This document shows, piece after piece, positions 8,338-63,766 of a stretch of 64,000 nucleotides of DNA. A program made the position numbers and the translations under genes. Location of the stretch: the NCBI GenBank assembly GCA_963675755.2, contig CAXXMD010000003.1, forward strand, positions 352,001 through 416,000, in the 5' to 3' direction. Within the stretch, counting starts at the first letter, position 1. The number at the start of each line of letters is the position of its first letter. This stretch comes from a bacterium. GTDB lineage: Bacteria > Zhuqueibacterota > Zhuqueibacteria > Residuimicrobiales > Krinioviventaceae. The notes under the pieces are model-generated. The model was not told where the DNA came from, did no database searches, and saw only the letters and a program-made list of their open reading frames with translations.

Positions 8338-8353
8338 CCACAAGGAGTTATTC

Positions 8354-9699: not shown

Positions 9700-9723
9700 C
9701 CGCCTTTTTATAGATTAGGATTC

Positions 9724-9749: not shown

Positions 9750-9752
9750 ACG

Positions 9753-43879: not shown

Positions 43880-44075
43880 TTCGACCTCTGATTGTTCATT
43901 TATTTTGAGTTTTTTATGTCTATTCATAATGGTTCAAGATTATTACTAATATCTTCAATCCTGCTGCAAAAATCAACCAATATCTGTTGACCAGATTAAT
44001 GCAATACAAATACCGGCGTTAAAATCAAAACGTTTTACTGATTTTCAATTCGAGATTTGCCCTAAGGAATAATAA

Positions 44076-45425: not shown

Positions 45426-45555
45426 CTGCTCCTCCTGTTGATAATGTTTGCAATGATAAATTCTGTTTAAATATAATATTGATTGCTCCCATACTGGCAG
45501 GCAAATTGTATAAAAGGCATTCACAATAATGGATTTATCTATTGTGCGTCCAGAG

Positions 45556-47073
45556 TTACATTTTCTCCGGTGGAACACAAAACCAGCTCAACTGTTCATC
45601 AACTGACAAATCATTCGGAAGCTTGTTAGCAAATGGATGTGTTTGTTTAAAATGGTTCAACATTATATTTTGCATTTTTTTCAAAATTTCTGAATTCTCT
45701 GCAAGATTTGCAACATCCCGATGTTCAAAAGGATCATTCACCACATCATACAATCTATGCATCAATCCCGATGGACCGTTGCCGGTTGCATAGCCCTGTC
45801 CCAGATCACTTACCCCGGAGGTAAATATATATTTCCACTTTTCCGTGCGGATCATGGCCTTGTTGTCTATTAAAAACTCGGAAAACACATAAGGCTTGTG
45901 TTCAGTTGTTTTGTTCTCAATCAAAGGTACCAGACTTTTACCCTGTACCTGCTGCATCTGATCCAATCCTAAAAGATCAGTTATTGTAGGAGCCAGATCC
46001 ACAAATTCGCAAATGGGATCAATTTCGTTTTCAGCATCACAACGGTTACCGGGTCGAAGAATCAACGGAGAACGTACAGCTTCTTCCCACATCATGTGTT
46101 TTTCAAACCGTTTATGATGACCCAACAGGTAACCCTGATCCCCTATATATATGACAAGTGTTTCATCCGCCAGCCCTTGCTTGTCCAGTTCGTCTAATAT
46201 AATCCCCACATTCTTGTCCAGATACTCTACAGAAGTATAACAAGAAGCGATAATGCCCTTTTTATCTTTATCGCTCAGGTCTTTAAAAATTGCGGGTATC
46301 CACCGATCGTCTTGATCACTTACCGGCGGCAGTTTTATATCATCAGGATTGTATTTTTTCTGATATTCTATTGGAAAATTAAATGGAGAATGCGGTTCAT
46401 GAAAGCCAACCCACAGGCAGAATCGCTCGTCTTTATGATCTCGAATAAATCCGGCAGATTCATTGGCAAGATATGTTCCCAGATCATCCTTGTCATAATA
46501 TTCCGAAGGCAGTCCATCTGCGTTTAACCAGATTCTTGCGGGCGTTTTAAACGGCTTCCAAACAGGACGGTGTTCCAATGTTTCCGGTGTCTTTTGAGGA
46601 GGATTTGCCTGCAAATATTCTTTCCAGGCTTTAGTATCTTTGAGCACATCAAAACCGTGGGGCAAATCATTATTAAAATGGGTTTTGCCAATCACTCCGG
46701 TAGCAAAGCCATAGGTTTTCAAATGCTCCGCTATGGTTTCCTGTTTATCAGAAAATGAAGTCTGCAGCAGGGTTACACCGCTGGCATGCGGATACCGCCC
46801 AGTTAATAACGACTGCCGGGAAGCACTGCACACCGGTGCATTGGCGTATGCGTGTGAAAAACGAACACTTTTTGTCGCCAGCTTGTCCAGATTGGGGGTT
46901 TTCACCAAATCATTTCCATAACAGCCCAGTGCATGTGCGGCATGATCATCCCCAATAATACATATCACATTCTTTAATGGTTTAGCGGGTTTACGAGCAC
47001 AACTCCAGGGAGCTGTTAATCCTGCTAATGTAAATACGGCAGACTGTTTTAAAAACTGGCGTCTTGTTTTCAT
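45556..47073 (-). CDS. Formylglycine-dependent sulfatase (S1), Tat lipoprotein
   Basis: RRQFLK and WSC; DDH, TPNLD.LA, CSASRQSLLTG, GKTH, EPHSP, GDQG. Confidence 0.9.
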   Translation of the reverse strand: MKTRRQFLKQSAVFTLAGLTAPWSCARKPAKPLKNVICIIGDDHAAHALGCYGNDLVKTPNLDKLATKSVRFSHAYANAPVCSASRQSLLTGRYPHASGVTLLQTSFSDKQETIAEHLKTYGFATGVIGKTHFNNDLPHGFDVLKDTKAWKEYLQANPPQKTPETLEHRPVWKPFKTPARIWLNADGLPSEYYDKDDLGTYLANESAGFIRDHKDERFCLWVGFHEPHSPFNFPIEYQKKYNPDDIKLPPVSDQDDRWIPAIFKDLSDKDKKGIIASCYTSVEYLDKNVGIILDELDKQGLADETLVIYIGDQGYLLGHHKRFEKHMMWEEAVRSPLILRPGNRCDAENEIDPICEFVDLAPTITDLLGLDQMQQVQGKSLVPLIENKTTEHKPYVFSEFLIDNKAMIRTEKWKYIFTSGVSDLGQGYATGNGPSGLMHRLYDVVNDPFEHRDVANLAENSEILKKMQNIMLNHFKQTHPFANKLPNDLSVDEQLSWFCVPPEKM

Positions 47074-47831
47074 TTAACCTCTTTGTCTACAAAGTATAAA
47101 GGTTCATTTTTCAATTGATTATGCGCGCGTGACCACAATTCCGGGGCCTCTAATAAATAAGAGTGGGCCTGCAATATCTTACCCTGGCGCAGTCCCTGTT
47201 TTATGCGTTCAACTTTATCATATCTCTGGATCCATCCATCAAAACCATGCCGACGATAGGTTTTAACTGCCTGATTCCCTTTTCCATCTACCAAGGTATG
47301 TTCCACATCCGGTCCCCAAAGATATTCGGGATTCACCAGTTCTTCAATACCATGCATAGATGTGTTGGGTTTTAATCCACAACCCAGCATCAAAATCTGG
47401 CCATTCAGGTTGCGTAACTGAGAAAATGGTGAATTACTGCCGCATGGAGTAGTATCAAGTATATGTTTTTCAAGGATCTTTTGTGCTTTTGGGCCCACAC
47501 CACAAACCGAATGGGTGGGGTGCATGCTGCGAATTGTACCTTCCCGCTTACGGAAATACTCGGGAATGGCGCCAACACAGGATGGAGTTTTTGCAATATC
47601 AAAAACGGATTGTTCAGGAGTAACGCTTTCATAAGACAATGCGGGCATTAACAACGTACCATCACCACCTATAGCTTTAAGAATTCCACGGATTACTGTT
47701 TCTGCGCCCCCGGGTACATGACCAAGTGCTTTTAACGAAGAATGTACCATCAAAACACCACCTTTGCGAACGCCAAGATTTTGCAAGCCATTGGCAATGT
47801 TTTGTTCAAATTGCTGGTTCATGTTTGTCAT
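47070..47831 (-). CDS. AAC(3)/Antibiotic_NAT family N-acetyltransferase
   Basis: LMVHSSL, GTLLMP, GAIPEYFR, RS.HPTHS, SPF, LG....NTSMH.IEE. Confidence 0.88.
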   Translation of the reverse strand: MTNMNQQFEQNIANGLQNLGVRKGGVLMVHSSLKALGHVPGGAETVIRGILKAIGGDGTLLMPALSYESVTPEQSVFDIAKTPSCVGAIPEYFRKREGTIRSMHPTHSVCGVGPKAQKILEKHILDTTPCGSNSPFSQLRNLNGQILMLGCGLKPNTSMHGIEELVNPEYLWGPDVEHTLVDGKGNQAVKTYRRHGFDGWIQRYDKVERIKQGLRQGKILQAHSYLLEAPELWSRAHNQLKNEPLYFVDKEVK

Positions 47832-48068: not shown

Positions 48069-50900
48069 TCAGGATTTTATTTTATATATGCGCACAGGAC
48101 CCAATAATCCTGCAGGTTCCGGTTCTGTTCTTTTGGTCCGATCAACCCATAATTGTGCAATTTTGTTATCTTTTAAAGAAGCACAATAATTGAATAATAA
48201 ATTGGTAACCGATATCTGTAAAACATGTTCCGTATTGGGTAAAAGCTCTACTACAAACTGGCGTTCTCCCCACCACTTAACACCCAATCCCTTACCATCG
48301 AGCTCTGGTTCAGCAATATCATACACTTGGCCCAAGTCCAATATACATTTCCCGCTCCAACCGGACTTGAATTTGCAGGTATAAACAGCCGTTCCGGAAA
48401 AGCTGCTCAATTCAGGATCCAAAGACAAGTCTTTAAGATCTTTTAAGGATTTATGATAAACCTTGCCATTGACATGTTTCAACTCTACGGACCAACTTTT
48501 ATCGATTTCGAAAAATTGTTCCGGATCTTTGATTGTAAAAAAGTCCTTGTCTATAAATTGATTTGAAAAGATGGCATCTACCCCTTTTTTAGACTCGGCA
48601 GGTTCTGCTTCCGGCTTGTAGACTACCAGCAGAGATTCCAAAGGCCCCAGTTTAACATTGATGATTTCGGGCAGCATTCCATGCGGATAACGTTTTATCT
48701 CACCGGTTTCTGCATCCAGTTTCCAGGGGATCTTTTTTCCTGTAGAAAAACTGGCATCAAACTCTAATCGTTTATCCCGGTTCTGATTGCTGATCAGAAA
48801 AATATCGTTATCGCCCTCAGCATGATGGATGAAGAACAGCTTTTCGTCCGGTACCGTAAACAAAACATCAGGCACCAGCCGCATGCCCTGTATGGTATGC
48901 AATGCCCACGGTATTACCTGACCTTTTTCAGGGGCCGGTACGCGCTTTACCATTCCCGGATATTGAGCAAATAGCTGTTCAATTGTTGATTTTACAAATT
49001 CATCATCTTGCATTGTCCCATTGTAGCCCAAACTCCTTACAGGTACCTGGCCGATAAAAACAATCTGCCCACCGCTTGCGGCAAAGAACTGTAAAGCCTC
49101 AACCGTTTTAGGGGAAAGCGAGGATACATCGGTAACCAGCAACAACTTGTAAGCCATGGGGCCGTATCGCAATTCGCCTCTTTCAAAAATTGCATTTTCC
49201 ATCACGGTGGAATTAATATAATCACTCATGTAGCCAAAATGATTAAACGCCTGCCACAACTGGTGCAGATAATGTGGTTCTGTATTCCATGGATTTCGAT
49301 CCAAACCGTATTTTGACCATTTGTCCGGTGTATTTCCAAGGATTGCAATCTGCGTAACAGGAGCCGAATTTTGGAATATATGACAGAGTCGCGCGGCGTA
49401 ATCAAACCACAATCCAGCAAAGGGCCACCAGGTATTATTTTCATTAAAATAAGTACCATACCGGATCCATCCCGGAAAACCCGCTTCGGGCGGTGAATAA
49501 TTAAATCCATGTAGAACCAGTTGATTGACTCCACAAATAATGTTCAAATCCGTGGCTTGCTTTATATATTCCAGAGTAGCACGAAAAACTCCGATTGTGT
49601 TGGTCATTGCCTCGCAGCTTGTAATCTTTTTACCGGTTAAATGCACCCCGGAGGATGCATATTTGTTCCATATAGCATACCGGATCTGGTCAATTTCCGC
49701 CTCATGTACCCAACCGCGATTAAATAACCACTGATCGCTTTCCGGGATATCGGGAACCAGATAACCGTCGAGTAGATCCGTATATAAAAAGGGGACACCA
49801 TACGCCTGATATCGGCTCTGAACATTGTTTTGACCACACCACTGATGGAATGGCTGAATAAACCTTTCCATAAACAGGTCTGCCAAAAGTTTGCTCATAT
49901 CATAACGCACCCGGTCGAGTTTTTCTTTAAAATCATCTTTAACAGTAACTTCCAGGTTCAACAGTAAGGGCAGCCAGGGCATTAACGAATATGCATACCG
50001 TTTTTTAAATTCATCCGGCAGATCTCCGGTCCAGTTTGCGCCTTTCAGTTCTATACTGTCGCAAAACATGGAGCGGATATGTGCACCCAAGTCATCACCC
50101 AAAACGGATTTCAACTCATCAGACATGCGGTTCAGATATTTTTCAACTGCGGATTTGTTAAAATGGTCCAGCACCGGACCGTCAGCCCCCGGTGCTCCGT
50201 GCAACACATCGCGAAAACGGTTACGCCAGGTTACAATATAGAGTTTATACTCACCATCCTCTAATTCTATCTGCAATTTACCACTTGACGACAGCTGGTC
50301 CATCACATCCAGACCGTCAGATTCAGACTGTGGTACAGCAGGAAACAGCTTTAACTGCACGAGTTTGTGGTTATCGTCATTTGGGATTTCGATCCGGGTC
50401 TCAAAAGTTCCAGGTCCCTTGCAATCCCTCACTTCCAACTCAACCCCCTGTATGGTCTCCTCGGGCAAGAGAAATTTTCCACCAAAAGGCCATCCGGTAC
50501 CGACAATCAAGTCCACATACATATCCAAAGATTTGGCTTCTTTGCACGCAACCTTGACCATATCCAGCCATTCTTTACTCAACCAGTCCAAAGGTTTTGC
50601 AGGCAAGTGCGGGTACAATTCTTCATCCAAAGCTATGGGATTGATCTCTACCCCACCGGCGCCTTTTTCTTTCATCAAAAGTAATTCTCTGCGGATCTCT
50701 TTTGCGGTCACCCGATTGCCATTCCACCACCAGCGGTAAAACGGACGCGCCAGCGATGGAGGATTCACAAATGAATCTATTAAAGCCTTGGGTTCCTGCG
50801 CACTCCAGGATCTAATGGAAAGCGGAGCAAGAGACATTGCACTGCTGCAAACAACTGTTTTTTTAAGAAACGAACGACGGGTACAACGGGTATCGATCAT
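48069..50900 (-). CDS. GH106 alpha-L-rhamnosidase family, Tat-exported
   Basis: RRSFLK; ARP..RWWWNG, GGVEI, GTGWPFGG, FCDSIE, SCEA, HGFNYSP....PGW, GLLGPV. Confidence 0.85.
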   Translation of the reverse strand: MIDTRCTRRSFLKKTVVCSSAMSLAPLSIRSWSAQEPKALIDSFVNPPSLARPFYRWWWNGNRVTAKEIRRELLLMKEKGAGGVEINPIALDEELYPHLPAKPLDWLSKEWLDMVKVACKEAKSLDMYVDLIVGTGWPFGGKFLLPEETIQGVELEVRDCKGPGTFETRIEIPNDDNHKLVQLKLFPAVPQSESDGLDVMDQLSSSGKLQIELEDGEYKLYIVTWRNRFRDVLHGAPGADGPVLDHFNKSAVEKYLNRMSDELKSVLGDDLGAHIRSMFCDSIELKGANWTGDLPDEFKKRYAYSLMPWLPLLLNLEVTVKDDFKEKLDRVRYDMSKLLADLFMERFIQPFHQWCGQNNVQSRYQAYGVPFLYTDLLDGYLVPDIPESDQWLFNRGWVHEAEIDQIRYAIWNKYASSGVHLTGKKITSCEAMTNTIGVFRATLEYIKQATDLNIICGVNQLVLHGFNYSPPEAGFPGWIRYGTYFNENNTWWPFAGLWFDYAARLCHIFQNSAPVTQIAILGNTPDKWSKYGLDRNPWNTEPHYLHQLWQAFNHFGYMSDYINSTVMENAIFERGELRYGPMAYKLLLVTDVSSLSPKTVEALQFFAASGGQIVFIGQVPVRSLGYNGTMQDDEFVKSTIEQLFAQYPGMVKRVPAPEKGQVIPWALHTIQGMRLVPDVLFTVPDEKLFFIHHAEGDNDIFLISNQNRDKRLEFDASFSTGKKIPWKLDAETGEIKRYPHGMLPEIINVKLGPLESLLVVYKPEAEPAESKKGVDAIFSNQFIDKDFFTIKDPEQFFEIDKSWSVELKHVNGKVYHKSLKDLKDLSLDPELSSFSGTAVYTCKFKSGWSGKCILDLGQVYDIAEPELDGKGLGVKWWGERQFVVELLPNTEHVLQISVTNLLFNYCASLKDNKIAQLWVDRTKRTEPEPAGLLGPVRIYKIKS

Positions 50901-50912
50901 AATTTCCTCTCT

Positions 50913-53555
50913 TTATATCGAAAACCAGTAATTGAGTTTCATCATGAACACATTTTGCGGTTCAACAGAAAATAACCGGTCAGCATTTTTACCCAGCGAT
51001 CGCACAGGCTCATGTATATAATCTGAACGGCCATGTGTCCACACAAAATAAAAGGTAGACCCGGGAGTAAATTCCCAGCGCAGCACCATATTTGATCGCA
51101 TCTCGAAAAAGTTAAAATTCGGATGCCCAATACTGTAATCTGCATTGCCATCATGTGTTTCATCAAACGCCATGGTATTGTTATCAGCATCAATCACAGT
51201 CTCTTCATCAGAAAAGGTATAAAATCTATCATCATATTCATCTGCATCCGCATCTTTAACATATTTGATATGAGAAAAAGAACCGGCTGAAATATAAGGG
51301 CTCACATAATATTGCAAAATCAGATTAGGTGTAAACGCGTAATTGGCACGCAAGGTCATTTCCCAGGTATCATGATCAATGCGACCCAGCACATAACGAT
51401 TCACATCATTAAAATTGATTGTGCTGATATATTGCGTGTCATCAATATTATGGCTGTATGTTAATTCACCCGACATGTTGAAACGATTACCCACACGGAG
51501 TGTTACACCGGGATTCAGACTAAACAATGACGTGATATCATCATCAACTTTGGTAACGGAACTGTGCAAAGTATAACTGAATTTTTTGCGGGAATCAGAT
51601 TGAATACCCGCAGAATAATACCAGTACCCATCCAAAGTCAATGCCGGGCCGCCGCGAAGCAAACGGGTATCCTGCCATTGTGGTACCCGGCTGAGATATG
51701 CATTAAATTTCCAGTAATTTTTAAAGGTCCATGAATTTTTAAATTCATAGCTGGACATAATCAAAGAACCGTCAAAACCCCACTCGTTTGATTGATCTAC
51801 AGTAACGGAATAAGTACGATATAACGATGTTGGGGTCTGTACAACATATGCCAACTCTGTATTTTGAGACACAACATCAGTCATTCTCAAATAACCCAGG
51901 TCATTCAGGTCCAGTCCGGGAGATAACCAGCTTATATTTTCAGAGTACTGCCAGCGGCCAAGGCCACCCTTTCCTACACCAATACTTCCACCAAAACCGC
52001 CAAGCGATGTTCTGGTAGTATCCAGCTCTATATGATCGATATCCGGACGTTGAAAATAATGTCTCGAATTTCTTTGAAGGGCCAAAATAGCTTCGGGTTC
52101 ACCCTGAATTTGGCTGAATATGGTTTTCACATCCAGATAATAGGTACGGTTCTTCCAACGCTGTAAATAATCAATACCACCGGTAAAGGCGTCTGTTGCA
52201 AGCGAGTTCAGGTGCACATCTTCATCAGCAATAAATCGCTGCGTTGATGTAAACATGGCGCCAATTGAAGAGTTGCCCTTGTTGTAATCTTTTAAAACAC
52301 GCGCCAGGAAATAGTTTGACCAGGGTTCAACAGTTTGCTTGCTTCGATTGCCATTATCATCGATCTCTGCTGTTTCTTTTGGGGTAATGCTTTGAATTAC
52401 ACCTACTGACAAACCATTTTTGGTTTTACCTGTTATTTTAAGCGCATTGAGGATGGTTGTTTCTTCCGGTTCGTTTGCATGTTGATTACCCGTCAGGTCT
52501 GCGGAATAAGAGGGTTGGTGCCCAATTCTTCTTGAATAAAACAACTGGTTACCACCTACTGCAAAATCAAAAATGGTTTTCCCTTCCAAAAAGAAGGGAC
52601 GCTTTTCATCATAAAACGTTTCAAATGCTGTCAGATTCAATACAGATGGGTCCGCTTCTACCTGCCCAAAATCAGGATTCACGGTAAAATCCATAGTGAA
52701 ATTGTTAGACAATCCCACTTTGCCATCAAAACCTATATTATATTTAAAATCCTTTCCATCAGCAAAAGGATTCCCCTCCTCTTTTGGATAAAAATTACCA
52801 CTGGTTAAGCCATAGGGCATCAACTCAATTCTTCGTATCTTGTTTAAACCGCTAATACCATGCAGCTCACCATAATTATCTACCCAGCTTGGCGTATTGA
52901 TAGCAAACACATTCCACTGATCTTCTTCTTTATTACGGTTGATCCATCTCCAAATATGCATGCCCCATACCTGGTCGTGGGCATCAGAGAACCGTAACTG
53001 ACTAAAAGGAATTCGCATTTCCACTGTCCACGCCGAATCTTCAAATGCAACATCTCCGTACCATACCGGGTCCCAATTTGTATGATAATCTTTATCATGT
53101 ATAGTTAGATCAATTTTACTCCCCGCGGCTGTCAGATCAAATTCAAAAGATGATCGCATGTCATGATAGCTGTCAAAACCAATACCTACTATATCCCCTC
53201 TAAACTGGTCACGTCTTGCGCCCTGTATATCAATTGAATCCAGATCATCAAAACAACGTATCGCAACATAGATGTTTAAATCATCATACAGTATTTTGAA
53301 CTCGGTTTCCCGTGTCGGTTTGGCATAATTATCCGGCATGAATTGCTGAAACCGTGTTGCCCATTCGCCCTGTTCAAGCCAGCAATCATCTTTGATTACA
53401 CCGTCAATTTCCGGAGCGTTGCCCTGTAAGCGTTGTGTGTAATATTTCCGCTTTTCTTTTAACGGTTTATGATATTCCTGCGCAAAAACAACCGATACCT
53501 GAAACAGTATGGCAATAAAGATGAATATTGAAATGTTCCTTCCATAACCTCGCAT
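50913..53555 (-). CDS. DUF5916 outer-membrane protein with N-terminal CBM9-like domain
   Basis: P.IDG...D..W, LYDD..IY, WTVEMRIPFSQLRF, TVNPDFGQVEAD, EKRPFFLEG, FYSRRIG, C-terminal KLNYWF. Confidence 0.82.
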   Translation of the reverse strand: MRGYGRNISIFIFIAILFQVSVVFAQEYHKPLKEKRKYYTQRLQGNAPEIDGVIKDDCWLEQGEWATRFQQFMPDNYAKPTRETEFKILYDDLNIYVAIRCFDDLDSIDIQGARRDQFRGDIVGIGFDSYHDMRSSFEFDLTAAGSKIDLTIHDKDYHTNWDPVWYGDVAFEDSAWTVEMRIPFSQLRFSDAHDQVWGMHIWRWINRNKEEDQWNVFAINTPSWVDNYGELHGISGLNKIRRIELMPYGLTSGNFYPKEEGNPFADGKDFKYNIGFDGKVGLSNNFTMDFTVNPDFGQVEADPSVLNLTAFETFYDEKRPFFLEGKTIFDFAVGGNQLFYSRRIGHQPSYSADLTGNQHANEPEETTILNALKITGKTKNGLSVGVIQSITPKETAEIDDNGNRSKQTVEPWSNYFLARVLKDYNKGNSSIGAMFTSTQRFIADEDVHLNSLATDAFTGGIDYLQRWKNRTYYLDVKTIFSQIQGEPEAILALQRNSRHYFQRPDIDHIELDTTRTSLGGFGGSIGVGKGGLGRWQYSENISWLSPGLDLNDLGYLRMTDVVSQNTELAYVVQTPTSLYRTYSVTVDQSNEWGFDGSLIMSSYEFKNSWTFKNYWKFNAYLSRVPQWQDTRLLRGGPALTLDGYWYYSAGIQSDSRKKFSYTLHSSVTKVDDDITSLFSLNPGVTLRVGNRFNMSGELTYSHNIDDTQYISTINFNDVNRYVLGRIDHDTWEMTLRANYAFTPNLILQYYVSPYISAGSFSHIKYVKDADADEYDDRFYTFSDEETVIDADNNTMAFDETHDGNADYSIGHPNFNFFEMRSNMVLRWEFTPGSTFYFVWTHGRSDYIHEPVRSLGKNADRLFSVEPQNVFMMKLNYWFSI

Positions 53556-53583: not shown

Positions 53584-55035
53584 TTAATTTACGTTTATCT
53601 TTCCTGGTGGTGTGTACAATTTATCCCCGTTATCTAATACCAAAACCCAATCGTTCTCGGGACCCTGGTATGGGGTAATAAATGTTGTGTAATTTTTCTC
53701 TTTCAACTGTCCAATTTTTTCAGCAACTCCGTTCACCGGCATATACCACCACGCCGTTATCGAGCTGCCGCTTAATTTATTCAAATCGATTTCAACTTTG
53801 CCGCCTTGCGGCAGATAAATCATTGCGTAACTGCCGTCAACTGCACGTGTTGCCAACATATGTGTACTGTCATCCGGATTTTCAGACATGATTAACGATG
53901 GATCCGGTATACGCTCCAACATGGGGCGCGATTCCATTAAATTCCGTACATAGGTCATCTGGGTTGCTCCGGGCAGATCCATTGCTACAGGCCATGGGGT
54001 ACGTGCCGCTGCTTTTTTCTCCCTGCCAGGCAGCCATAACTGCCAGATATCATTGCAGCCATATGTGTATCCAAACGCTCCGGCAAATAACGATCTGTAC
54101 GCGGCTTTACGGACATCACATGCACCAAACCAGCCTGCTTCTCCGGGTTTAAAATTAACAGGATGGTCCTCGTAATTGGGTTCTCCATCAAAAACCGGTT
54201 TGGTGGGAGAACGCCGGTAATCCGTTGTGATCTTTTGCCAATTGGGATCATCCCTACGGCTATGTCCTGATTGCCAGGTATTGAAATCCAGCCAGGCATC
54301 ATCATGAAACCAATGTGACGAACTGGTGCCGCCCCAGGAATGGTATCCCATCAAATGCCGTTTATCGACAGATTTTATGGCGTTTGCCATAGCCCGCCAG
54401 ATGGGTTTATAATCCTCTTCTTCCCATTCAGGGGCCCTGTCTCCGCCCAATATCCAGATGATATTGGGTTTATTTTTATAACGTTTGGCAATCCATTTAC
54501 CATATGCGACAGCGTTGGTGGAATCAAACACCACGGGACCTACTCCCCAGCGTTTCAAAACCTTGTCTCCCCAGGTGGGAAGGAGCGCAATATAAATACC
54601 CTTTTCCGCAGCCTTGTTAATGACCCAGTCCACATGGTCCCAGTAATCATAAGCATCATCATTGGCAATGGTGCTGCCCGCAGTGGTATCTGGCTTTGCA
54701 GGATCATTATCCACCAGAGGTCTGTCTCCATAGCTGTTTGGGGTATCCAATCCATCAAGCTCTGCCAACGCGACTGCCTGAATAACGGTAAACCGCTTTT
54801 GTCTGCGATTTTCCAGGTATCTCTCGGCTTCTTCCCGCGTGGTACGATGAAACAGTTCCCAGCAGGTATCTCCCAGATAAAAGAACGGAGTGCCATCGGC
54901 ATGCACTATCATACGATGATCGTCAGAAACCCTCAGATCGCCATGACTAAAATCCACAGACGGTTCAGGCCGCTCAACAATCGGCGAACAGGCAAACATA
55001 GATAATATTAATAATAAAGTTGTAAATCTTTTCAT
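53584..55035 (-). CDS. GH140 (DUF4038) apiosidase-like lipoprotein
   Basis: Lipobox FAC; DGTPFFYLGDT.WELFHR, LLPTWGD, IIWILGGDR, QSGH, KPVFDGEPNYE, GYTYG, DWVLVL. Confidence 0.88.
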   Translation of the reverse strand: MKRFTTLLLILSMFACSPIVERPEPSVDFSHGDLRVSDDHRMIVHADGTPFFYLGDTCWELFHRTTREEAERYLENRRQKRFTVIQAVALAELDGLDTPNSYGDRPLVDNDPAKPDTTAGSTIANDDAYDYWDHVDWVINKAAEKGIYIALLPTWGDKVLKRWGVGPVVFDSTNAVAYGKWIAKRYKNKPNIIWILGGDRAPEWEEEDYKPIWRAMANAIKSVDKRHLMGYHSWGGTSSSHWFHDDAWLDFNTWQSGHSRRDDPNWQKITTDYRRSPTKPVFDGEPNYEDHPVNFKPGEAGWFGACDVRKAAYRSLFAGAFGYTYGCNDIWQLWLPGREKKAAARTPWPVAMDLPGATQMTYVRNLMESRPMLERIPDPSLIMSENPDDSTHMLATRAVDGSYAMIYLPQGGKVEIDLNKLSGSSITAWWYMPVNGVAEKIGQLKEKNYTTFITPYQGPENDWVLVLDNGDKLYTPPGKINVN

Positions 55036-55392: not shown

Positions 55393-57294
55393 TTACGGCA
55401 CTGTAATATTGGCTATCAACCATGCAAACAAAATCACCAGAATAGAAATAGCAATACAGGCGAAAAAGCCCCACACATCGGTTTTACTGAATTTCTTTAA
55501 TCCCCACGCAGAGGGATTGGCTTCCTGTTCATACGCCAGAATCTGTGCATCCACGTTTTTCACGTCCTGGTCCGGATCACTGCTCACCGGCATATTTAAA
55601 CGTGCAAACACATTATCAACAGCTTTCCGCTCCGGTTTGGATGTAAACAGGCTCACAACAACCAGCAGTACAAATGGCAGGATTATGTTCAACGAATAAT
55701 TCAACGTCATCAATATAGGATTCGAAGCGCCGTCAAAGCCAATACCCATCAAGGCCAATACAACCAGCATGGGTTTGTCCGCAACACCCGCAGGCACTTG
55801 GCCCGCCACAAACGCCATCTGCGGCAGAATATTGGGCAGCATTACAATCACCATCCACGAGAAAAAAACAGTAACCAGCGCAGCAGTCCGGGTTACATAA
55901 CGCCAGAGAATACTGACCCAGAAAACCGCTCCAAAAATAACCGGCAATTGCCAGTAATATTTGATCAGGCTCAACACATCATTAAAATAAAGACTGATGG
56001 CAATTGCACCACCAATCATAACCGCAGAAACCAAACGTCCGACTTTGACATAGTGTTCTTCACTCTTGTCTGATACCAATGGACGATAAAAGTTGCGTGT
56101 AAACAGGGCAGAACCGCAGATCATGAATGCATCCGCACTGGACATGGATGCCGCAAGCAAACAGGCAATCATAATCCCCACAAATCCGGGACCCAGGAGC
56201 TGGTCGGTTGCGTATCCCCAGATCATATCAGGATCACTGATCACATTCTTGTACAAAGCAAAGGCAACCACACCGGTAAAGCCCCACATGATGGTTGTAA
56301 ATCTTTTTAAATAGTTGCCAAAAACCAGACCTACACGTGCGGTCATTTCATCTTTGGCACTGCCGCCACCGGTAACAAATATATGCGGCTGCGCAGCCAC
56401 ACCCACCAGATTCATGGCTATAAGCGCTACGATATAATACCAGGTATAATCGCTGCTGGCGGAGGTACTGATAATTTTAAACATGTCAGCGGGTACTGTG
56501 GCATGCAGTCCGGAGAACCAGCCCGCTTTGTACATTCCCATGGGCAACAGGAGCACGGAAAGGACCAAAATCAGAATCCCCTGCAAGGTATCGGTCCAGG
56601 CAGCGGCATAGAGTCCACCTAAAAGTCCATAGATCAAAATGATCAATGCAATAATAGGTACAATTTGTTGAGTGGTAATATGTGAATAATAGGCCTTAAT
56701 TTTTTCCTGTTTTTCAAGCTGCTTTAGATCAGCAAGCTGCTGTTTTTGTTCAACGGTAGGATTTTCAAGAGCCGTAAGGGTTTTCAGCGTTTTATATTGA
56801 TCAACACTCTGCTTTTCCGATACTGTCAGCACAGATTCCGATTTTACGGTCACTATCTCGATTGTTTTTCCAATGGCCGTCAGCCCGATTGCAATGTAAA
56901 ACATTAACCAGATAATACTGGTCCAAACATACAAAGCTGTCAAGCCCTTGCTCTGAAATCGCTGTTGAAAGTAATCTCCACCCGTAATAACACGCAATCG
57001 GCGGTACCAGGGCGCAATGATCCAGTAAAAAGGAGTGATAAACAACCAAAGCAACTGAATCCAGATCCCGGACATCCCCACGCGATACGTCTCACGGGAC
57101 GCAGAGATGGCCGTATCCGAACTGGTGCCGGTTCCAAATGATAAAAAGATGGAAACCAGTTTGCCAAACCGGCGCCCGCCAAGGAAATAATCTGTTTCGT
57201 TTTTTATTAATCGCTTTGACAACCAACCGATACCAATTACCAGCAAAAAATAGCCTGCAATGGCAAGAATATCCAGAATGTGCAATCCAAACAT
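55393..57294 (-). CDS. Sodium:solute symporter (SSS) family transporter
   Basis: DYFLGGR, GGL.AAAWTDTLQG, GPGFVGIMIA.LLAASMSS, many TM helices. Confidence 0.9.
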   Translation of the reverse strand: MFGLHILDILAIAGYFLLVIGIGWLSKRLIKNETDYFLGGRRFGKLVSIFLSFGTGTSSDTAISASRETYRVGMSGIWIQLLWLFITPFYWIIAPWYRRLRVITGGDYFQQRFQSKGLTALYVWTSIIWLMFYIAIGLTAIGKTIEIVTVKSESVLTVSEKQSVDQYKTLKTLTALENPTVEQKQQLADLKQLEKQEKIKAYYSHITTQQIVPIIALIILIYGLLGGLYAAAWTDTLQGILILVLSVLLLPMGMYKAGWFSGLHATVPADMFKIISTSASSDYTWYYIVALIAMNLVGVAAQPHIFVTGGGSAKDEMTARVGLVFGNYLKRFTTIMWGFTGVVAFALYKNVISDPDMIWGYATDQLLGPGFVGIMIACLLAASMSSADAFMICGSALFTRNFYRPLVSDKSEEHYVKVGRLVSAVMIGGAIAISLYFNDVLSLIKYYWQLPVIFGAVFWVSILWRYVTRTAALVTVFFSWMVIVMLPNILPQMAFVAGQVPAGVADKPMLVVLALMGIGFDGASNPILMTLNYSLNIILPFVLLVVVSLFTSKPERKAVDNVFARLNMPVSSDPDQDVKNVDAQILAYEQEANPSAWGLKKFSKTDVWGFFACIAISILVILFAWLIANITVP

Positions 57295-57296
57295 GA

Positions 57297-58433
57297 TTAT
57301 TGACCGCCTCTCAGGGTTTCTATAAATTCATATAATGCCAACTGCTCTTTTTGAGTCTCACAATAACTGGTCACTATCAGTTTTATTCCCGGTGCCCACA
57401 ACTCGCTGATTTTCTCTTTCAATGTTTCCAGATCACCTACAATACGTGCGTTAACAATCACACCGGTGCCCGTAAAAGTATCTCTGAACGGTGCACAGGG
57501 ATTCGGATCCGGATCCGTTTGTACGGAAAACGCTGCATCGATCACTTTGAGCCCGGGGATGTCGCGAATAGTGGCTGCCTTGCTGCTCCAGTTTCCGCAG
57601 GAATGAAATACAGCTCCGCCAAATGCCTCGCCAATACGCTGCATTGCGGGATATTCAAATTCAACATACTGATCTGGCGAAATCATTACCGAAACATCAC
57701 TGCTTAATCCCAGGCCGTTAAAGACACGAATACTGGGAAAACCGTGACCGGGTAATACCATTGCATCACCAATAAGTTCTTTTTGTTTTTGAGTAAATTC
57801 TATGGTCAAATCGGTTATTATGGCTAAAATCTTTTTCAGCGCATCAGGATTCATGATCATATCCATGAAAAACGTATCCGTCGGAAACAAAAAAGAAGCC
57901 GCGTTTAACGATGCCTGAGAATCCGTAGGCGACATGGGTATTTTGCCTCCAGTATTTTCCAGAAAATAGTCGATCATGTTGAGAATGTGCTTACCAATGG
58001 GGGTTTCGTGTACGGGAACAATCTCCCGCTCTAATGCTTCTTCAATGGATTTAAACGGGGGATGGATTGCCGGTGCGTTCCCCTCTTTCCAGTCATATTC
58101 AATGCCAAAGGCGCTTGCGGTAACACCAATGCCGTACCAGGGTTCCAGAAAATTGGCAATATCTCCGGCATATTCCATACTTTGCTGAAGCAGTCCCAGT
58201 TGAAGTGCCAGGGATTTTTTCATGTCCCTGCTGTCATAAGCAAAAACACCGGGACTCCGGAACCGTCGGTACACCAGAATGCCCTCCGAAGCGTTCCAGA
58301 ACGACTGGTTCTTTTCCAGCAGGGATTGTTCATAATCATAATATCTTTCGATATCAAATTTTTTCGGATCCAGCTCATTTCCAAGGGTTCCCTGAGAATC
58401 CGACAGGGTATAATCAAATTCTTTAGACATCAT
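57297..58433 (-). CDS. Uroporphyrinogen decarboxylase-like superfamily protein (MtaA/CmuA-type HxC motif)
   Basis: P.....G....ASAFG, D.Q..LN.A, MISP..Y.EF..P, FHSCG; lacks the HemE WxMRQAGR motif. Confidence 0.75.
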   Translation of the reverse strand: MMSKEFDYTLSDSQGTLGNELDPKKFDIERYYDYEQSLLEKNQSFWNASEGILVYRRFRSPGVFAYDSRDMKKSLALQLGLLQQSMEYAGDIANFLEPWYGIGVTASAFGIEYDWKEGNAPAIHPPFKSIEEALEREIVPVHETPIGKHILNMIDYFLENTGGKIPMSPTDSQASLNAASFLFPTDTFFMDMIMNPDALKKILAIITDLTIEFTQKQKELIGDAMVLPGHGFPSIRVFNGLGLSSDVSVMISPDQYVEFEYPAMQRIGEAFGGAVFHSCGNWSSKAATIRDIPGLKVIDAAFSVQTDPDPNPCAPFRDTFTGTGVIVNARIVGDLETLKEKISELWAPGIKLIVTSYCETQKEQLALYEFIETLRGGQ

Positions 58434-58492
58434 ATTCTCCCAACCGATTATGTAATGCCCCAAAAATCTAAATCTAATTTCACATTATAACA

Positions 58493-59920
58493 TCAGGCTT
58501 TATCTTTTAATGGCCACAGTTCATGATCTGTACGCACGGTATCCAACAGTTCCTTCATTTTGGCAACAATTTGAGGATACTGGTCCGCAATATTGTTCAG
58601 TTCTTCAATATCAACGGACAAATCATACAATTCAATGGGTCCGGAAGGATAATGCCTTACAGCCTTCCATTCTCCCATTCGTACCGCCTGATCTGTGGCT
58701 TTGTTTTCATGAAACTCCCAATACAGGTATTCATGCTGTGGTTGCTTTTTGCCCAACAATTCCGGCAGAAATGAAATACCATCAATATCTTGCGGTACAT
58801 CAACTCTGGCTAATTGACAAGCTGTAGGCAAAAAGTCCCAAAATGCAGATACATGTTTGGATGTGCTCTCTGCCTTGATCTTTCCGGGCCAGCGTACCAT
58901 AAACGGAACACGTATACCACCATCATACAGATCACGTTTATATCCACGTACAGGACCGTTACTATCAAAAAAGTCAGGGTCCGCACCGCCTTCTTTATGA
59001 GGTCCATTATCGCTTGAAAACATGACAATGGTATTATCATCAATTCCCAATTCTTTTAACAGGTCCATCATACGGCCCACATCCCTGTCCATTCGCTCAA
59101 CCATACCGGCAAAAGCAGCTTTCGGCATGAGCTGTGTACCATAGTGTCCACGGCCTCCATCTTTGGCACTGTAATGTGGTGTTTCCTCAAACTTGCCTTT
59201 AAAGGGATCAATAGAATCTTCCGGTACCAGCAATTCCGCATGCGGAATGGTAAAGGGAACGTATAAAAAGAACGGTTCATCTTTATGGCGTTTAATAAAA
59301 TCCAGTGTTTCATTAGCAATCAGATCATGGGTATACTGTTGCTGCTTACCGTCCTGGTTCCCTTCAAGTGTGATCTTTTCACCGTTTTTCCAGAGGTAAT
59401 CTGTATAATAGAAATGGGCATGCCCCTGGTTCAGATACCCCATAAACTCGTCAAATCCTTGTTTGTCCGGTTGACCGGTAGTGGTCATTACACCCAAACT
59501 CCACTTGCCAAATATGCCGGTGGCATAACCGGCAGGTTTTAACAGTTCAGCAACGGTAACATCCTGCGGACGCAGTTCCAAACACGCACCAAATCCATGT
59601 GGACCGGCTTCATAGTTTCCACGTACACGGGAATGCCCGGTATGGAATCCGGTCATCAGGCTGCATCGCGAAGGTGCGCAAACGGTACTACCGGCGTAAT
59701 GATCTGTAAATTTCATCCCTTCTGCGGCCAATCTGTCCAGATTAGGAGTTTTAAAATGCGTTTGTCCATAACACCCCAAATCTCCATATCCCAGATCATC
59801 TGCAAGAATATAAATAATATTGGGTTTAGCTGTTGGTTTTGAACAGGAAGAAAAGCCCAATGGCAGTGCGGCAAATCCTGCAAGGCCGCCCAATTGTTTC
59901 ATAAATTGTCTGCGATTCAT
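58493..59920 (-). CDS. Arylsulfatase (S1), Tat lipoprotein
   Basis: RRQFMK and SSC; PNIIYILADDLGYGD, CAPSRCSLMTG, GKW, SDNG, KRDLYDGGIRVP. Confidence 0.93.
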   Translation of the reverse strand: MNRRQFMKQLGGLAGFAALPLGFSSCSKPTAKPNIIYILADDLGYGDLGCYGQTHFKTPNLDRLAAEGMKFTDHYAGSTVCAPSRCSLMTGFHTGHSRVRGNYEAGPHGFGACLELRPQDVTVAELLKPAGYATGIFGKWSLGVMTTTGQPDKQGFDEFMGYLNQGHAHFYYTDYLWKNGEKITLEGNQDGKQQQYTHDLIANETLDFIKRHKDEPFFLYVPFTIPHAELLVPEDSIDPFKGKFEETPHYSAKDGGRGHYGTQLMPKAAFAGMVERMDRDVGRMMDLLKELGIDDNTIVMFSSDNGPHKEGGADPDFFDSNGPVRGYKRDLYDGGIRVPFMVRWPGKIKAESTSKHVSAFWDFLPTACQLARVDVPQDIDGISFLPELLGKKQPQHEYLYWEFHENKATDQAVRMGEWKAVRHYPSGPIELYDLSVDIEELNNIADQYPQIVAKMKELLDTVRTDHELWPLKDKA

Positions 59921-59945
59921 ATTTACCCGATTCTTTCCATAACCA

Positions 59946-60785
59946 TTATTGTAAATAGCCAAGTTTTGTTAAAAACTGGTCCATTTCTTCTACTGTTTTA
60001 ATATAGTATTTGTTTTCAAATTTCCCATAATTAAAAAAACCATGTCCCACATCGGGAAAAGTAATCAGCTCGCATGTATTGCCGTTTTCATGCATGAGAC
60101 GGCTAAAACGCTCTACATTTTCAACCGGCACTGCGGTATCACTCTGTCCATGAAAGATTATTGTTGGAGGTAAACCCGCTCTTACATGATGAGCAGGAGA
60201 AATCTGTTCCCAGTTCTCGCCGCACTTTTCCCGACCATATCCTTTTTCAGAGGTGTCAATAACAGGATTAAATAAAACCAGGGCATTGGGAACAGAACTG
60301 ACGGTCAAATCTTCATCTGGCGAATCAAATCCTTCTATAACCGCGGTACATGCTGCCACATGTCCACCGGCGGAACCACCGCCAGCGGCAATCATATCGG
60401 GAGCTATACCCAGTTCACCGGCATGAAGGCGTATCCAACGGACTACGGATTTGCCATCGGTTACGCACTCGAATGGTGTGGTGCCATGTTTTTCTTTAAT
60501 ACGGTATTCTGCACAAATTGCAACCATTCCCCGGGAGGCAAGATGTTTACTATGCTCATAAAAATGTTTGGCAGTACCATGTGTCCATCCTCCGCCAAAA
60601 AAGAAAACAATTGCCGGTAAAGGCTCCCCATCTGTTTGTGTGGGTTTAAAAACATGTAAATTCAGTCGGGTTGTATCAATTTGTTTGTACTGAACAACCT
60701 CCAAAGTGTATTTTTCTTGGTCCTGCGCATAAAGAAAAGACACCCCAATAAAAAGAAAAACCAGAATAAATCGTACAATCTTCAA
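59946..60785 (-). CDS. Secreted alpha/beta hydrolase (carbohydrate esterase/acetylesterase-like)
   Basis: FFGGGW, GGSAGGH nucleophile elbow, HG..D..VP, GHGFFN. Confidence 0.85.
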   Translation of the reverse strand: MKIVRFILVFLFIGVSFLYAQDQEKYTLEVVQYKQIDTTRLNLHVFKPTQTDGEPLPAIVFFFGGGWTHGTAKHFYEHSKHLASRGMVAICAEYRIKEKHGTTPFECVTDGKSVVRWIRLHAGELGIAPDMIAAGGGSAGGHVAACTAVIEGFDSPDEDLTVSSVPNALVLFNPVIDTSEKGYGREKCGENWEQISPAHHVRAGLPPTIIFHGQSDTAVPVENVERFSRLMHENGNTCELITFPDVGHGFFNYGKFENKYYIKTVEEMDQFLTKLGYLQ

Positions 60786-61152: not shown

Positions 61153-62523
61153 TTACGCTTTTTTCAGGTTAACGGCATAGCTCAAACCAATATATAAAAT
61201 TTGAGCAATAAAATAACCTGGCAGCCATTTAAAAAACATATCCAGGGGAAGTATAAACACAATAATCAGCGTAGCAGCCCAGGTAACCAGAGCTGGCCAA
61301 CTGATAAACAACTTTTGGGTTTCAGCGCGATATTGCGGCAATCCCAATTTGGGGATGAGCCAATGCTCTGCAAAAACAACAGCGCCCATAGGCATGAGAA
61401 TCAATCCATACAGAGCTACAAAATCCAGCAAACGGGTAAATACCAATGGAAAACATGCAACCGCAGAGGTTACCAAACCCGCAACCAATGTCACTTTCCA
61501 GCGCTGCCAGTTGGGTGTAACCACCTGAAGCGCCAGTCCGGCCCGGTACATGGTAGGATTAGAAGTTGTCCAACCCGCGATAACTACAGCAACCGCACCA
61601 GAAAAACCGGCAGCAGCAAAAGCCATCATGCCGGGATTCATATCACGTGCAACAGCGGCAACCATAATTCCCGAACAAATCCAGGCCAAAAAGTGACCGG
61701 GGTACATGCCAAAAGCACTGTAAAAGCCGTATTTCCAGTTTTTAGCATATCGTAATGTAGCCATATCTGCAAGGCCTACATGCATAGCAAGATTGGCAAA
61801 CCAGGCAAAAAACAATACATGCCACATGGTATATTTCTGCTGACCGGGAGTAGGTACACCTGTCCAGATCTTGGTTTCAGCGATATGCCAGAAATCAGAA
61901 AGGCTGTGAATATGACCCAGACTGGGCAGTAATGCAAGAGCACCCGCAATAAAAATGGCAAACATCCAGGGAGAACAAACGGATGAAAACTTGCTCACTT
62001 TATCAAAACCCAGAATTGCAAACAAGGTTACTATGGCTCCAACAAACAATGTGATCACAACCCAACCAACACTGTTGGGTAAAACATCTGTTAGCGCTGG
62101 GGTAGGCACATTGAATGCTAGCCCCACCGCGCTTGCGGAAACAGAGATCATTGCCCCGGCTAGAACACAATACAAAAAGGCATTGATAATATTATAAATA
62201 ATTGTTACTCCGGGTCCGGCAACCTTTCGAAGATACCAGTATAATGTCAAACGGGTACGAACCGCAATAGGGGCAACAATAAAGCCCCAGGATAAAACAG
62301 CCAAAAGATTTCCAATAAGCAAACCAATAAACAGGTCTTTGGCCGCAACACCATGTATTACAAACATGGCACCAATTACAAACTCGGTTGCCGCAACATG
62401 TTCACCTGCAAACAGACCAATAAATCGGCCTGATCCATGCAGCTTGTCTTCAGTGACCGGTTGACGGTCAAATTCAAACAAGGCATCTAAACGTTTTGCT
62501 AATGTAGTTTTTTCCATTCCCAA
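61153..62523 (-). CDS. NCS1/cytosine-permease-like membrane transporter
   Basis: About 12 TM helices; EF.R.PV, GEHVAATEFVIG, GLLIGNLLA, GWTTSNPTMY. Confidence 0.75.
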   Translation of the reverse strand: MGMEKTTLAKRLDALFEFDRQPVTEDKLHGSGRFIGLFAGEHVAATEFVIGAMFVIHGVAAKDLFIGLLIGNLLAVLSWGFIVAPIAVRTRLTLYWYLRKVAGPGVTIIYNIINAFLYCVLAGAMISVSASAVGLAFNVPTPALTDVLPNSVGWVVITLFVGAIVTLFAILGFDKVSKFSSVCSPWMFAIFIAGALALLPSLGHIHSLSDFWHIAETKIWTGVPTPGQQKYTMWHVLFFAWFANLAMHVGLADMATLRYAKNWKYGFYSAFGMYPGHFLAWICSGIMVAAVARDMNPGMMAFAAAGFSGAVAVVIAGWTTSNPTMYRAGLALQVVTPNWQRWKVTLVAGLVTSAVACFPLVFTRLLDFVALYGLILMPMGAVVFAEHWLIPKLGLPQYRAETQKLFISWPALVTWAATLIIVFILPLDMFFKWLPGYFIAQILYIGLSYAVNLKKA

Positions 62524-62542: not shown

Positions 62543-63766
62543 CTACTGACGTTCTTTTTCAATCTTTTCCTGATATCCGCTTTCAACATATGCAGCAACA
62601 GGATCTAGCGGTAAATTATTTTCCAAACGTGCCGCGCCAACCAGAGGTCTTACATCGGCATTCATCATGGCATTATTGAATAAACGGTTTGCCAGAATAA
62701 TCTCATCTTTATCCTGAAATTTTGCCAGTGCATCACTGTCAACCAGCGCAGCTTTGGCCAAAGAGATCTGCAAAGAATCAATTGAATGCAAAATAGCGTG
62801 AATACGATTTTCACGACTGCTACATTGATCGATCATATAAGCCCAATTCTTTGAAGCATCAGAATTCACAACCACATTACCCGCAACCAGTTCATAAAAA
62901 ATACGCGCCATTTCACCATTGGGTTCAACAGAATGATCATCATCCGCTGCATAGCGTGTATTAAAATGAAATCCACATTTCATATCATCATTAATAAGGC
63001 GGGCAACAATCTGCTCAATATTGGTAGCATGTGCATGGTGGCCCAAATCTACCAGAACACCTGTATTACCACCGGCTTTTTTCGCCATCATGTAAGCGCT
63101 GCCCCAATCGGAAATAACTGTGCTATAAGTACCGGGTTCAAAAACTTTGTACTCGATAAGGATGGAAACATCATTGATCATTTTGGATCGCATCTCAACA
63201 ATACTGGCTTCAGCAAGGTCATAAGCTTTTCTTAACTCAACTTGTCCCGGGTAGGCAGAGCCATCAGAAACCCACAGAGTAACCAATTTGTCTCCATATT
63301 TCTCTGCTATTTCACCTGCCAATATAGTTTGGTTAATATATCTTTCACGGGTTTCCTTTTCAGTAGCGGAAAGACTGCCACGATACGAACCCCGTAAAAA
63401 ATAAGTTGGACTGATTGAACCAATGCGCAAACCTCGTGCCTTTGTTTCTTTTGCTATGTTCTCCGCTATTTTCATATCCGATTCCATACAATCATCGGAA
63501 AAATCCCACAACATGTGCATAGCAACCGAATCTGCAGCACCGGTTATTTTGTTAACCATTGCAGCATCGTCCAGTTTTTCTAAAATCGTTCTGCCAAACG
63601 CTGGTGGCATATAGTCGCCAAAACGTCCACCACCAAATTCTCCAAATATCCAGCTGGGTATCTCTATCCGAAAGCGGGCCACTTTATCTATCGCGTCTTT
63701 TACTCTTTCTTTGCCAAATTCGAGTTCTAACAGCTGAACTCCCAATGTTACTTGTTTTTCATTCAT
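62543..63766 (-). CDS. rhaI: L-rhamnose isomerase (RhaI, xylose-isomerase-like TIM barrel)
   Basis: IEIPSW, H..WD, W..DG..YPGQ, EYK.FEP, DWG, VDLGHH...TNIEQIV, FHFN.RYAADDD, YMIDQ. Confidence 0.8.
   Translation of the reverse strand: MNEKQVTLGVQLLELEFGKERVKDAIDKVARFRIEIPSWIFGEFGGGRFGDYMPPAFGRTILEKLDDAAMVNKITGAADSVAMHMLWDFSDDCMESDMKIAENIAKETKARGLRIGSISPTYFLRGSYRGSLSATEKETRERYINQTILAGEIAEKYGDKLVTLWVSDGSAYPGQVELRKAYDLAEASIVEMRSKMINDVSILIEYKVFEPGTYSTVISDWGSAYMMAKKAGGNTGVLVDLGHHAHATNIEQIVARLINDDMKCGFHFNTRYAADDDHSVEPNGEMARIFYELVAGNVVVNSDASKNWAYMIDQCSSRENRIHAILHSIDSLQISLAKAALVDSDALAKFQDKDEIILANRLFNNAMMNADVRPLVGAARLENNLPLDPVAAYVESGYQEKIEKERQ

Follow-up and report, generated by a model that had tools for sequence, protein, structure and literature searches.

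A URO-D-superfamily protein paired with a sodium:solute symporter in a glycan locus, a candidate for methyl transfer on imported sugars

What does a protein of the uroporphyrinogen decarboxylase (URO-D) superfamily do beside a sodium:solute symporter in a locus for glycan breakdown? The question is raised by a 64,000-nucleotide stretch of bacterial DNA (contig CAXXMD010000003.1, positions 352,001 to 416,000; C3:352001-416000 in our numbering), here called the window, which encodes on its minus strand, at 57297-58433, a 378-amino-acid (aa) URO-D-like protein that we refer to as F. The original prediction, made from the sequence, held that F and the symporter may import and demethylate or otherwise process O-methylated sugars. 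Our analysis leads us to favor two linked statements, each with a little less than even confidence: that F is a cytoplasmic zinc-dependent group-transfer enzyme, with methyl transfer as its most likely chemistry, and that it carries out zinc-assisted methyl transfer on an imported anionic solute derived from glycans.

The gene pair and the clade of F

F is read from an open reading frame (ORF) at 57297-58463 with an ATG at 58433 and scores 51.1 bits on the Pfam URO-D model PF01208 (cut-off, 23.9), while its 633-aa partner of the SSS family (55393-57294, minus strand) scores 101.2 bits on PF00474 (cut-off, 22.8) and 129 bits on TIGR00813, under the cut-off of 184. The symporter gene starts 2 nucleotides (nt) past the stop codon of F, the junction reading CAA TAA TC ATG with a GAGAGG stretch upstream, and the pair lies between a sulfatase gene (58493-59962, minus strand; PF00884, 207 bits, with SGSH_C), 59 nt upstream of F, and, downstream, a gene for a GH140 apiosidase-like glycoside hydrolase (53584-55035, minus strand; PF13204, 408 bits). 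Coordinates, Pfam scores, and junction agree with the arrangement first described for this locus. Among 80 loci fetched for comparison, our ORF picker recovered F in 72 (L043, L051, L056, L059, L061, L069, L072, and L073 were dropped), and in 12 of these 72, plus one cut at a contig end, an orthologous SSS gene immediately adjoins that of F with no change of strand; the loci concerned are labeled KSB1, Cytophagia, Calditrichota, Chlorobiota, Bacteroidota, Phycisphaerae, Pirellulales, and Anaerohalosphaeraceae. The pairing exceeds chance, and we conclude that the two genes form a genuine, conserved pair whose functions are coupled.

The SSS protein of the window reached no substrate-specific equivalog model. 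Two of its transmembrane segments are separated, at residues ~150-200, by an insert of about 50 residues that is hydrophilic and rich in Lys, Glu, and Gln and that has no counterpart in the aligned Bacteroides SSS protein; the SSS orthologues of the closest loci are 699 aa long.

Since searches of the PDB with F alone and with a family profile found no usable match, structure prediction was needed to place F. The AlphaFold2 model is confident (predicted local distance difference test [pLDDT], 93.8; predicted template modeling score [pTM], 0.92) and has the (beta/alpha)8 barrel of the URO-D type; Foldseek ranks MtaA of Methanosarcina mazei first (E 6e-13 and 1e-11), URODs next, and then MetE, and by VIA Z the model scores 22.5 against UROD and 21.1 against MtaA. 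In a quick maximum-likelihood search (92 superfamily rows, midpoint root, one HemE reference, without canonical MtaA, MtbA, CmuA, or OdmB sequences), F forms a clade with a Shimodaira-Hasegawa-like approximate likelihood ratio test (SH-aLRT) support of 100, within a larger group of F-like proteins, the c0 family, and the protein X363 (both discussed below), and this group stands apart from the one that holds the HemE of the genome and the MtaA/CmuA-like proteins. Passing the Pfam URO-D gathering threshold would fit a true uroporphyrinogen decarboxylase (HemE) that came to lie in this locus by chance, a reading to which we give practically no credence. F had no match to the HemE model TIGR01464 (equivalog cut-off, 302.95 bits) at E <= 0.01, and the real HemE, with 419 bits on PF01208, is encoded at C3:3304818-3305819, among 12 URO-D-family matches genome-wide; together with the separate positions in the tree, this led us to reject HemE, and the transporter and glycan context of F is conserved besides. 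Unlike HemE (for example, PDB 1R3Y and 1URO), F also carries an H-x-C motif of the zinc type. The lack of HemE character noted in the original prediction is therefore upheld.

On sequence grounds, F is neither a HemE nor a curated MtaA/CmuA member but falls in a deep clade of the URO-D/MtaA superfamily that carries no name. The clade is large: among 6,523 candidates, 1,276 proteins match F at E <= 0.001, the best 120 of them being full length and 51 to 96% identical, and representatives at 50% identity number 724 at E <= 0.001 and 56 at E <= 1e-30. Of 374 pattern matches in a collection of species genomes, 360 proved to encode a relative. Carriers, which are largely anaerobe-type genomes, bear the labels KSB1, Cytophagia, Bacteroidales (Phocaeicola, Alistipes, and Prevotella), Spirochaetota/Treponema, Planctomycetota, Bacillota, Atribacterota, and Cloacimonadota, among others, and within the order to which the window belongs, F occurs in 8 of 31 genomes. 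The protein Atlas gives only "URO-D family" names, and our literature searches, for which most subscription journals were outside the scope, found no paper on the family or on corrinoid- or zinc-dependent sugar demethylation.

Predicted active site, neighborhoods, and substrate type

Three elements of the translation point to a candidate active site, all encoded on the minus strand. An FHSCG motif (57594-57608) holds H277 and C279, candidate zinc ligands, and matches LHICGN of MtaA (PDB 4AY7); a SYCE motif (57357-57368) holds C358, a possible third zinc ligand whose position is variable among family members; and a YRRFR loop (58257-58271), which follows the first strand of the barrel (modeled as E51-56), holds R56, R57, and R59, candidate anion-binding residues. 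Scored over 154 family sequences (121 stand-alone proteins and 33 forms fused to c0), H277, C279, D299, R59, and R330 never vary, whereas R57 is kept in 153 sequences and R56 in 150, and the histidine and cysteine of the MtaA-type H-x-C...C motif that the original prediction had recognized are thus kept throughout. The order of elements in F (FHSCGN, D299 on the next strand, N328-x-R330, and C358 after the following strand) parallels LHICGN, LSVEE, LVGNVS, and APGCG of 4AY7, with strand positions taken from the model and the F motif aligned to LHICGN and APGCG via a paralogue. We take the zinc ligands of MtaA to be His, Cys, and Cys (and Glu). At the position of C358, cysteine is found in 112 of the 121 stand-alone proteins and is lost in 9; it is lost in 29 of the 33 fused forms, whose F domains carry Ala (26), Ser (3), or Cys (4) there and whose c0 domains retain H-x-C and C-C. 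Judging from these alignments, the third cysteine is dispensable in the family.

The arginine cluster right after strand 1 presumably resembles the carboxylate-binding loop of HemE, and MtaA 4AY7 has no arginines at this position. F is thus predicted to join a metal motif of the MtaA/MetE type to an anion-binding feature.

The surroundings of F were surveyed in 71 loci; L001, in which the relative is 96% identical and the genes are in the same order, was left out. The 456 neighbor proteins within four genes were clustered and one representative was scanned for 39 of the 40 largest clusters, and 178 further neighbors within three genes, one per remaining cluster, were scanned as well. A transporter gene is directly adjacent on the same strand in 36 of the 71 loci and lies within two genes in 43, comprising 19 ACS-type MFS, 13 SSS, 5 TRAP, 3 Opp-type ABC, and 2 FucP transporters and 1 other; the ACS-type partners have TIGR00893 as their best model, under its cut-off, and the FucP partners reach 631 bits, over the cut-off. 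Carbohydrate genes occur within four genes of F in 32 loci, and pectin, hexuronate, or rhamnogalacturonan genes (GH28, PL1, PL11, UxaE, KduI, UxuA, GH88, and GH78) do so in 22. Of the original prediction, the recurrent coupling to transporters and the recurrent sugar-catabolic context, here mainly pectin and uronate, are borne out, and neither of the outcomes that would have counted against it, a grouping of F with the HemE of the genome or homologues without nearby sugar genes, was observed.

The transporters that most often accompany F belong to types that carry anions, that is, sugar acids (ACS-family MFS and TRAP), and the arginine cluster is invariant; both suggest that the substrate of F is acidic. 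Nothing points specifically to 2-O-methyl-fucose or 2-O-methyl-xylose, the substrates initially put forward, and this part of the proposal finds no support. Fucose is hinted at only by a GH29 fucosidase (1 locus) and by FucP-type permeases, which are encoded on the strand of F and no more than two genes away in 2 of the 71 loci; when the range is widened to four genes, the FucP cluster is present in 4.

A second protein family recurs beside F. The 360-aa c0 proteins have no Pfam match, adjoin F in 28 of the 72 loci, and are distantly homologous to it (hhalign 98.5%, E 2e-15), with an H-x-C-G ... C-C motif of their own. In 34 of 36 longer matches (34 protein clusters, including P0123), c0 is fused N-terminally to F, giving proteins of 664 to 763 aa, all but one of them 724 to 763 aa. 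The genome of the window has a single c0-like gene (C2:1305236-1306312), beside a DHDPS-family gene; its product is 24% identical, and we rejected it as a c0 orthologue and regard it as a paralogue.

Proposed methyl transfer and competing readings

If F acts as we favor, the cotranslated SSS protein would import a small anionic solute, most likely a methyl-esterified or O-methylated acidic sugar, which the GH106, GH140, esterase, and sulfatase enzymes of the locus would free from a glycan that is pectic or rich in rhamnose and apiose. R56, R57, R59, and R330 would grip the anion, and a zinc ion held by H277, C279, and D299 (and, in most members, C358) would polarize the methyl-bearing heteroatom. 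The methyl group would then pass to a nucleophile, which could be Co(I) of the corrinoid protein encoded at G000:C1:281935-282600 (G000 being the genome of the window) or, directly, a thiol, and the demethylated sugar would join catabolism. What the analysis shows is the fold, conservation of the motif, coupling of the genes, the recurring transporters and pectin genes, fusion to c0, and, in occasional loci, complete corrinoid/folate modules; zinc binding, methyl transfer, the substrate, and the acceptor are what we infer. The idea that O-methylated sugars are imported and demethylated or otherwise processed is partly supported, through the transporter and the sugar context. A bolder extension, to which we would assign a rather low probability, is that F, alone or with c0, forms the core of an oxygen-independent demethylation of methylated pectic sugars in which the methyl group goes to a corrinoid or a thiol and no methanol is released; candidate substrates would be methyl-esterified or O-methylated uronic and other acidic sugars and, possibly, methyl-fucose.

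Links to corrinoid chemistry are few but informative. As originally noted, the window holds no corrinoid protein: no B12-binding domain was found in it, all 7 PF02310 matches of the genome lying outside C3:352001-416000, and the genome encodes a single small corrinoid protein (221 aa; the candidate acceptor named above), within a GH92 locus. Three F loci do hold a corrinoid protein, and these contain near-complete methyl-transfer modules. In L007, from a metagenome-assembled genome (MAG) labeled Cytophagia whose F is 61% identical to that of the window, the order is pectate lyase, GHL15-like protein, F, SSS, GHL10-like protein (an assignment that is a lead only), MtaB, and corrinoid protein, with full-length MtaB (PF12176, E 4e-163) and an MtaC-like corrinoid protein directly downstream of the F-SSS pair (L007:14719-16781). 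In a rumen Bacteroidales locus (L033:7434-14851), F is followed by an ACS-type MFS transporter, a corrinoid protein, an MtaA/CmuA-like protein, and a MetH-activation-like domain, and the divergently transcribed genes encode a methyl-tetrahydrofolate:corrinoid methyltransferase (309 bits; cut-off, 259), ETF, and an ETF-MTHFR fusion. Taken together, these genes resemble a full set for methyl oxidation, here in a member of the Bacteroidales. L014 also has a corrinoid protein near F. In L011, F is followed by a fusion of an MtaA/CmuA-like protein with thioredoxin and by CobW, and the orthologue of this fusion in the genome of the window (SH-aLRT 100; C1:279614-280975) is followed by CobW and then by the small corrinoid protein. 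The thioredoxin-like domain of the corrinoid-linked fusion is of a (seleno)protein type.

Some further corrinoid arrangements were seen along the way. L007 places a methanol methyltransferase pair in a pectin locus of a genome of neither methanogen nor acetogen type. In L105 (G000:C1:270241-290240), the genes at 8348-12360 encode a GntR/LacI-type regulator, the 453-aa MtaA/CmuA-like-thioredoxin fusion (HUIPC type), CobW, and the corrinoid protein; they lie between two GH92 genes and a gene for a DUF5916/CBM9 protein, a corrinoid methyl-transfer module in a mannoside-type glycan locus. Phocaeicola coprophilus and two Bacteroides genomes with F have as their only non-MetH corrinoid domain one that is fused or adjacent to X363 and an SSS transporter. 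X363 is a Pfam-invisible URO-D-like protein in which YHLDG replaces FHSCG; in P. coprophilus (L115:322-2127) it forms a 601-aa fusion with the corrinoid-binding domain, with the SSS gene next, and in Bacteroides sp. 51 (L109:1096-2932) the two are separate neighbors, again with the SSS gene next. The SSS protein of the Bacteroides module is only 23% identical to that of the window and was rejected as its counterpart.

Several observations weigh against methyl transfer by F on a sugar. A corrinoid protein lies within 10 kb of F in only 3 of the 80 loci; the genome of the window, which is 98% complete, contains neither MtaB nor a RACo-type activase, and its pterin-binding proteins are one FolP-like and one MetH-like protein and no others. 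Because small corrinoid proteins occur in all 31 genomes of the order and F in 8, there is no signal of co-occurrence. F stays far under the curated MtaA/CmuA cut-offs (24.1 versus 235.4 bits on TIGR01463, 32.9 versus 244 on NF004889, and 17 versus 400 on NF040654), and our neighborhood figures are raw, background-uncorrected counts. Removal of a methyl group from an aliphatic ether by Co(I) would, in addition, be chemically hard. Finally, according to a preprint by Kountz and Balskus (PMC10418091), His-Cys-Cys zinc spheres in this superfamily mark S/Se-methyltransferases, and O-methyltransferases carry carboxylates in place of Cys; this rule counts against demethylation of a sugar. The objection is softened, though not removed, because solely His, Cys, and Asp are invariant in F. 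Another study (PMC13222342) describes CdmB, a UroD-superfamily methyltransferase, as functioning without zinc.

Competing readings differ in how much of this chemistry they keep. In one, which we consider unlikely, F would be an MtaA-like second-step enzyme aimed at sulfur or selenium. It would take methyl groups off a methyl-corrinoid, itself charged by methanol or some other donor, and pass them to a thiol or selenol, or else it would demethylate a methylthio compound; the sugar context would then mirror the release of methanol or methyl groups from pectin and not a sugar substrate. MtaA is the URO-D-type partner of MtaB-MtaC in methanol systems, and in L007 F is the sole URO-D-type protein beside MtaB-MtaC, in the place of MtaA. 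MtaA is also the best Foldseek match of F, the corrinoid-linked partner in the genome of the window bears the (seleno)protein-type domain, and the 112 of 121 stand-alone members with a full His-Cys-Cys fall into the set that PMC10418091 assigns to S/Se-methyltransferases. However, the neighbor of F is a solute importer in 36 of 71 loci, and a corrinoid protein accompanies it in 3 of 80; the third cysteine is missing from 9 of the 121 stand-alone proteins and from 29 of the 33 fusions, MtaB is absent from the genome of the window, and the invariant arginines, along with aromatic residues, would suit a sugar acid better than a small thiol. A different departure, likewise improbable in our view, gives up methyl transfer altogether and has F use the URO-D barrel for decarboxylation, isomerization, or another cofactor-light conversion of an imported sugar acid, with any metal acting as a Lewis acid or a structural ion. 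By VIA Z UROD is at least as near to F as MtaA is, the arginine-rich loop directly after strand 1 would resemble the carboxylate-binding loop of URO-D, 77 of the 80 loci have no corrinoid protein, and F adjoins UxaE, KduI, or UxuA in several loci. Against this conversion stand the invariant H-x-C-G motif, arranged as in MtaA, and the lack of a match to the HemE model, and the minority of loci with full corrinoid/folate modules would be hard to account for otherwise. Nor is F a simple replacement for uronate isomerase: UxaC is present in the genome of the window and in 2 of 4 other F genomes tested, the two genomes that lack it being MAGs of uncertain completeness, and we rejected F as a general stand-in for this enzyme.

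The c0 family raises one more option, that F and c0 together make a cobalamin-independent, MetE-like two-barrel methyltransferase that passes the methyl group directly from donor to acceptor, with F acting alone or as a homodimer in the window. c0 is a distant homologue of F that adjoins it in 28 of 72 loci and that, in 34 of the 36 longer matches, is joined to it in one protein of MetE-like size; MetE barrels match F structurally, and most loci have no corrinoid protein. In the model of a c0-F fusion (pLDDT 73; pTM 0.70), however, MetE aligns at a root-mean-square deviation of 22 to 24 A and a template modeling score of ~0.3, so a MetE-like arrangement, with the two barrels facing each other around one zinc site, is not demonstrated, and the genome of the window has only the distant c0-like paralogue, encoded elsewhere. 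We hold this option to be decidedly unlikely, and zinc-assisted methyl transfer on an imported anionic, glycan-derived solute remains the reading that we prefer.

Comparison with characterized systems shows where F differs from them. MtaA of M. mazei, the methylcobamide:coenzyme M methyltransferase (PDB 4AY7/4AY8), is ~15% identical to F, which gains 17 to 33 bits on models with cut-offs of 235 to 400; in contrast to MtaA, F mostly has no adjacent corrinoid protein, can do without the third cysteine, carries an arginine cluster after strand 1, and is coupled to solute importers and glycan genes in a host that is not a methanogen. MetE, the cobalamin-independent methionine synthase with its zinc barrel, has a much lower structural score with F, and F has no Pfam Meth_synt match. 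F shares its superfamily with the UroD-type corrinoid methyltransferases (OdmB/MtvB, the methyltransferase I [MTI] of O-demethylases; CdmB; CmuA; and Mlp of type 1 mlp clusters), and some F loci contain, as those systems do, a corrinoid protein, an MtaA/CmuA-like protein, an activation domain, and a folate methyltransferase. In the tree, however, F and c0 separate from the sampled MtaA/CmuA-like proteins. Mlps are, according to PMC10418091, ~30% identical to MtaA-type enzymes, whereas the similarity of F to these is hardly measurable; a corrinoid protein is a constant part of cdm and mlp clusters and a rare one of F loci; and none of these systems is known to be linked to carbohydrate loci. 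A functional counterpart is the cytochrome P450 carbohydrate demethylase reported to act on 6-O-methyl-galactose (PMC6292453), an oxygen-dependent heme enzyme of unrelated fold that would likewise take away a methyl group standing in the way of sugar catabolism.

Methyl ethers and esters on plant and algal glycans obstruct sugar catabolism, and the sole carbohydrate demethylase that surfaced in our literature searches is this oxygen-requiring P450. For the handling of methylated pectic sugars by anaerobes of gut, rumen, and sediment, F, in 360 species genomes, is a concrete candidate. If our reading is true, corrinoid or zinc methyltransferases would gain a new class of substrates, the picture of methyl carbon flow from pectin would change, the carbon staying in the cell and not leaving it as methanol that feeds other organisms, and both F and c0, each a large protein family, would receive names. 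Under the bolder extension, gut and rumen Bacteroidales, spirochetes, planctomycetes, KSB1, and clostridia would possess a carbohydrate demethylation chemistry that is not known from anaerobes. Should F prove to be thiol directed or no methyl-transfer enzyme, the family would still be a large unannotated clade.

Other genes of the window and of related loci

The glycan locus, encoded on the minus strand, extends to both sides of the F-SSS pair. Overlapping the start of the sulfatase gene is a gene for a BD-FAE/alpha-beta hydrolase esterase (59946-60785; PF20434, 96.5 bits) with weak, sub-cut-off similarity to acetylxylan and pectin acetylesterase models, and a RhaI-family sugar isomerase-like protein is encoded at 62543-63766 (TIGR02635, 330 bits, under the cut-off of 531). 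Between the two lies the gene for a 456-aa hydrophobic protein (61153-62523) that has no Pfam or NCBIfam match and no BLASTP similarity to MtaB or to the 463-aa protein c16_463; it may be an unclassified transporter. Beyond the GH140 gene come genes for a DUF5916/CBM9 protein (50913-53555; PF19313, 271.7 bits, and PF06452) and a GH106 alpha-L-rhamnosidase-like protein (48069-50900; PF17132, 256.9 bits). Upstream of GH106, at 42476-47831 on the minus strand, the locus continues with two GH109-like oxidoreductase-type glycosidases (one with a twin-arginine translocation [TAT] signal), a second sulfatase, and an aminoglycoside 3-N-acetyltransferase-family protein. Genes in the first half of the window are unrelated and serve housekeeping, efflux, and regulation.

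In the closest loci, two proteins without a Pfam match are kept beside the F-SSS pair, of 463 aa (L004:4044-5435) and 633 aa (L004:5479-7380). For the first, the Atlas points to GHL10-like hydrolases (score 0.93, a lead only), and c16_463 is not URO-D-like. Elsewhere in the genome of the window, two URO-D paralogues of 381 and 344 aa (L106; G000:C1:312000-331999) lie on either side of genes for an MFS transporter, a GFO/IDH/MocA oxidoreductase, a 3-keto-disaccharide hydrolase, GH28, a GH63-like protein, and a pectate-lyase-like protein.

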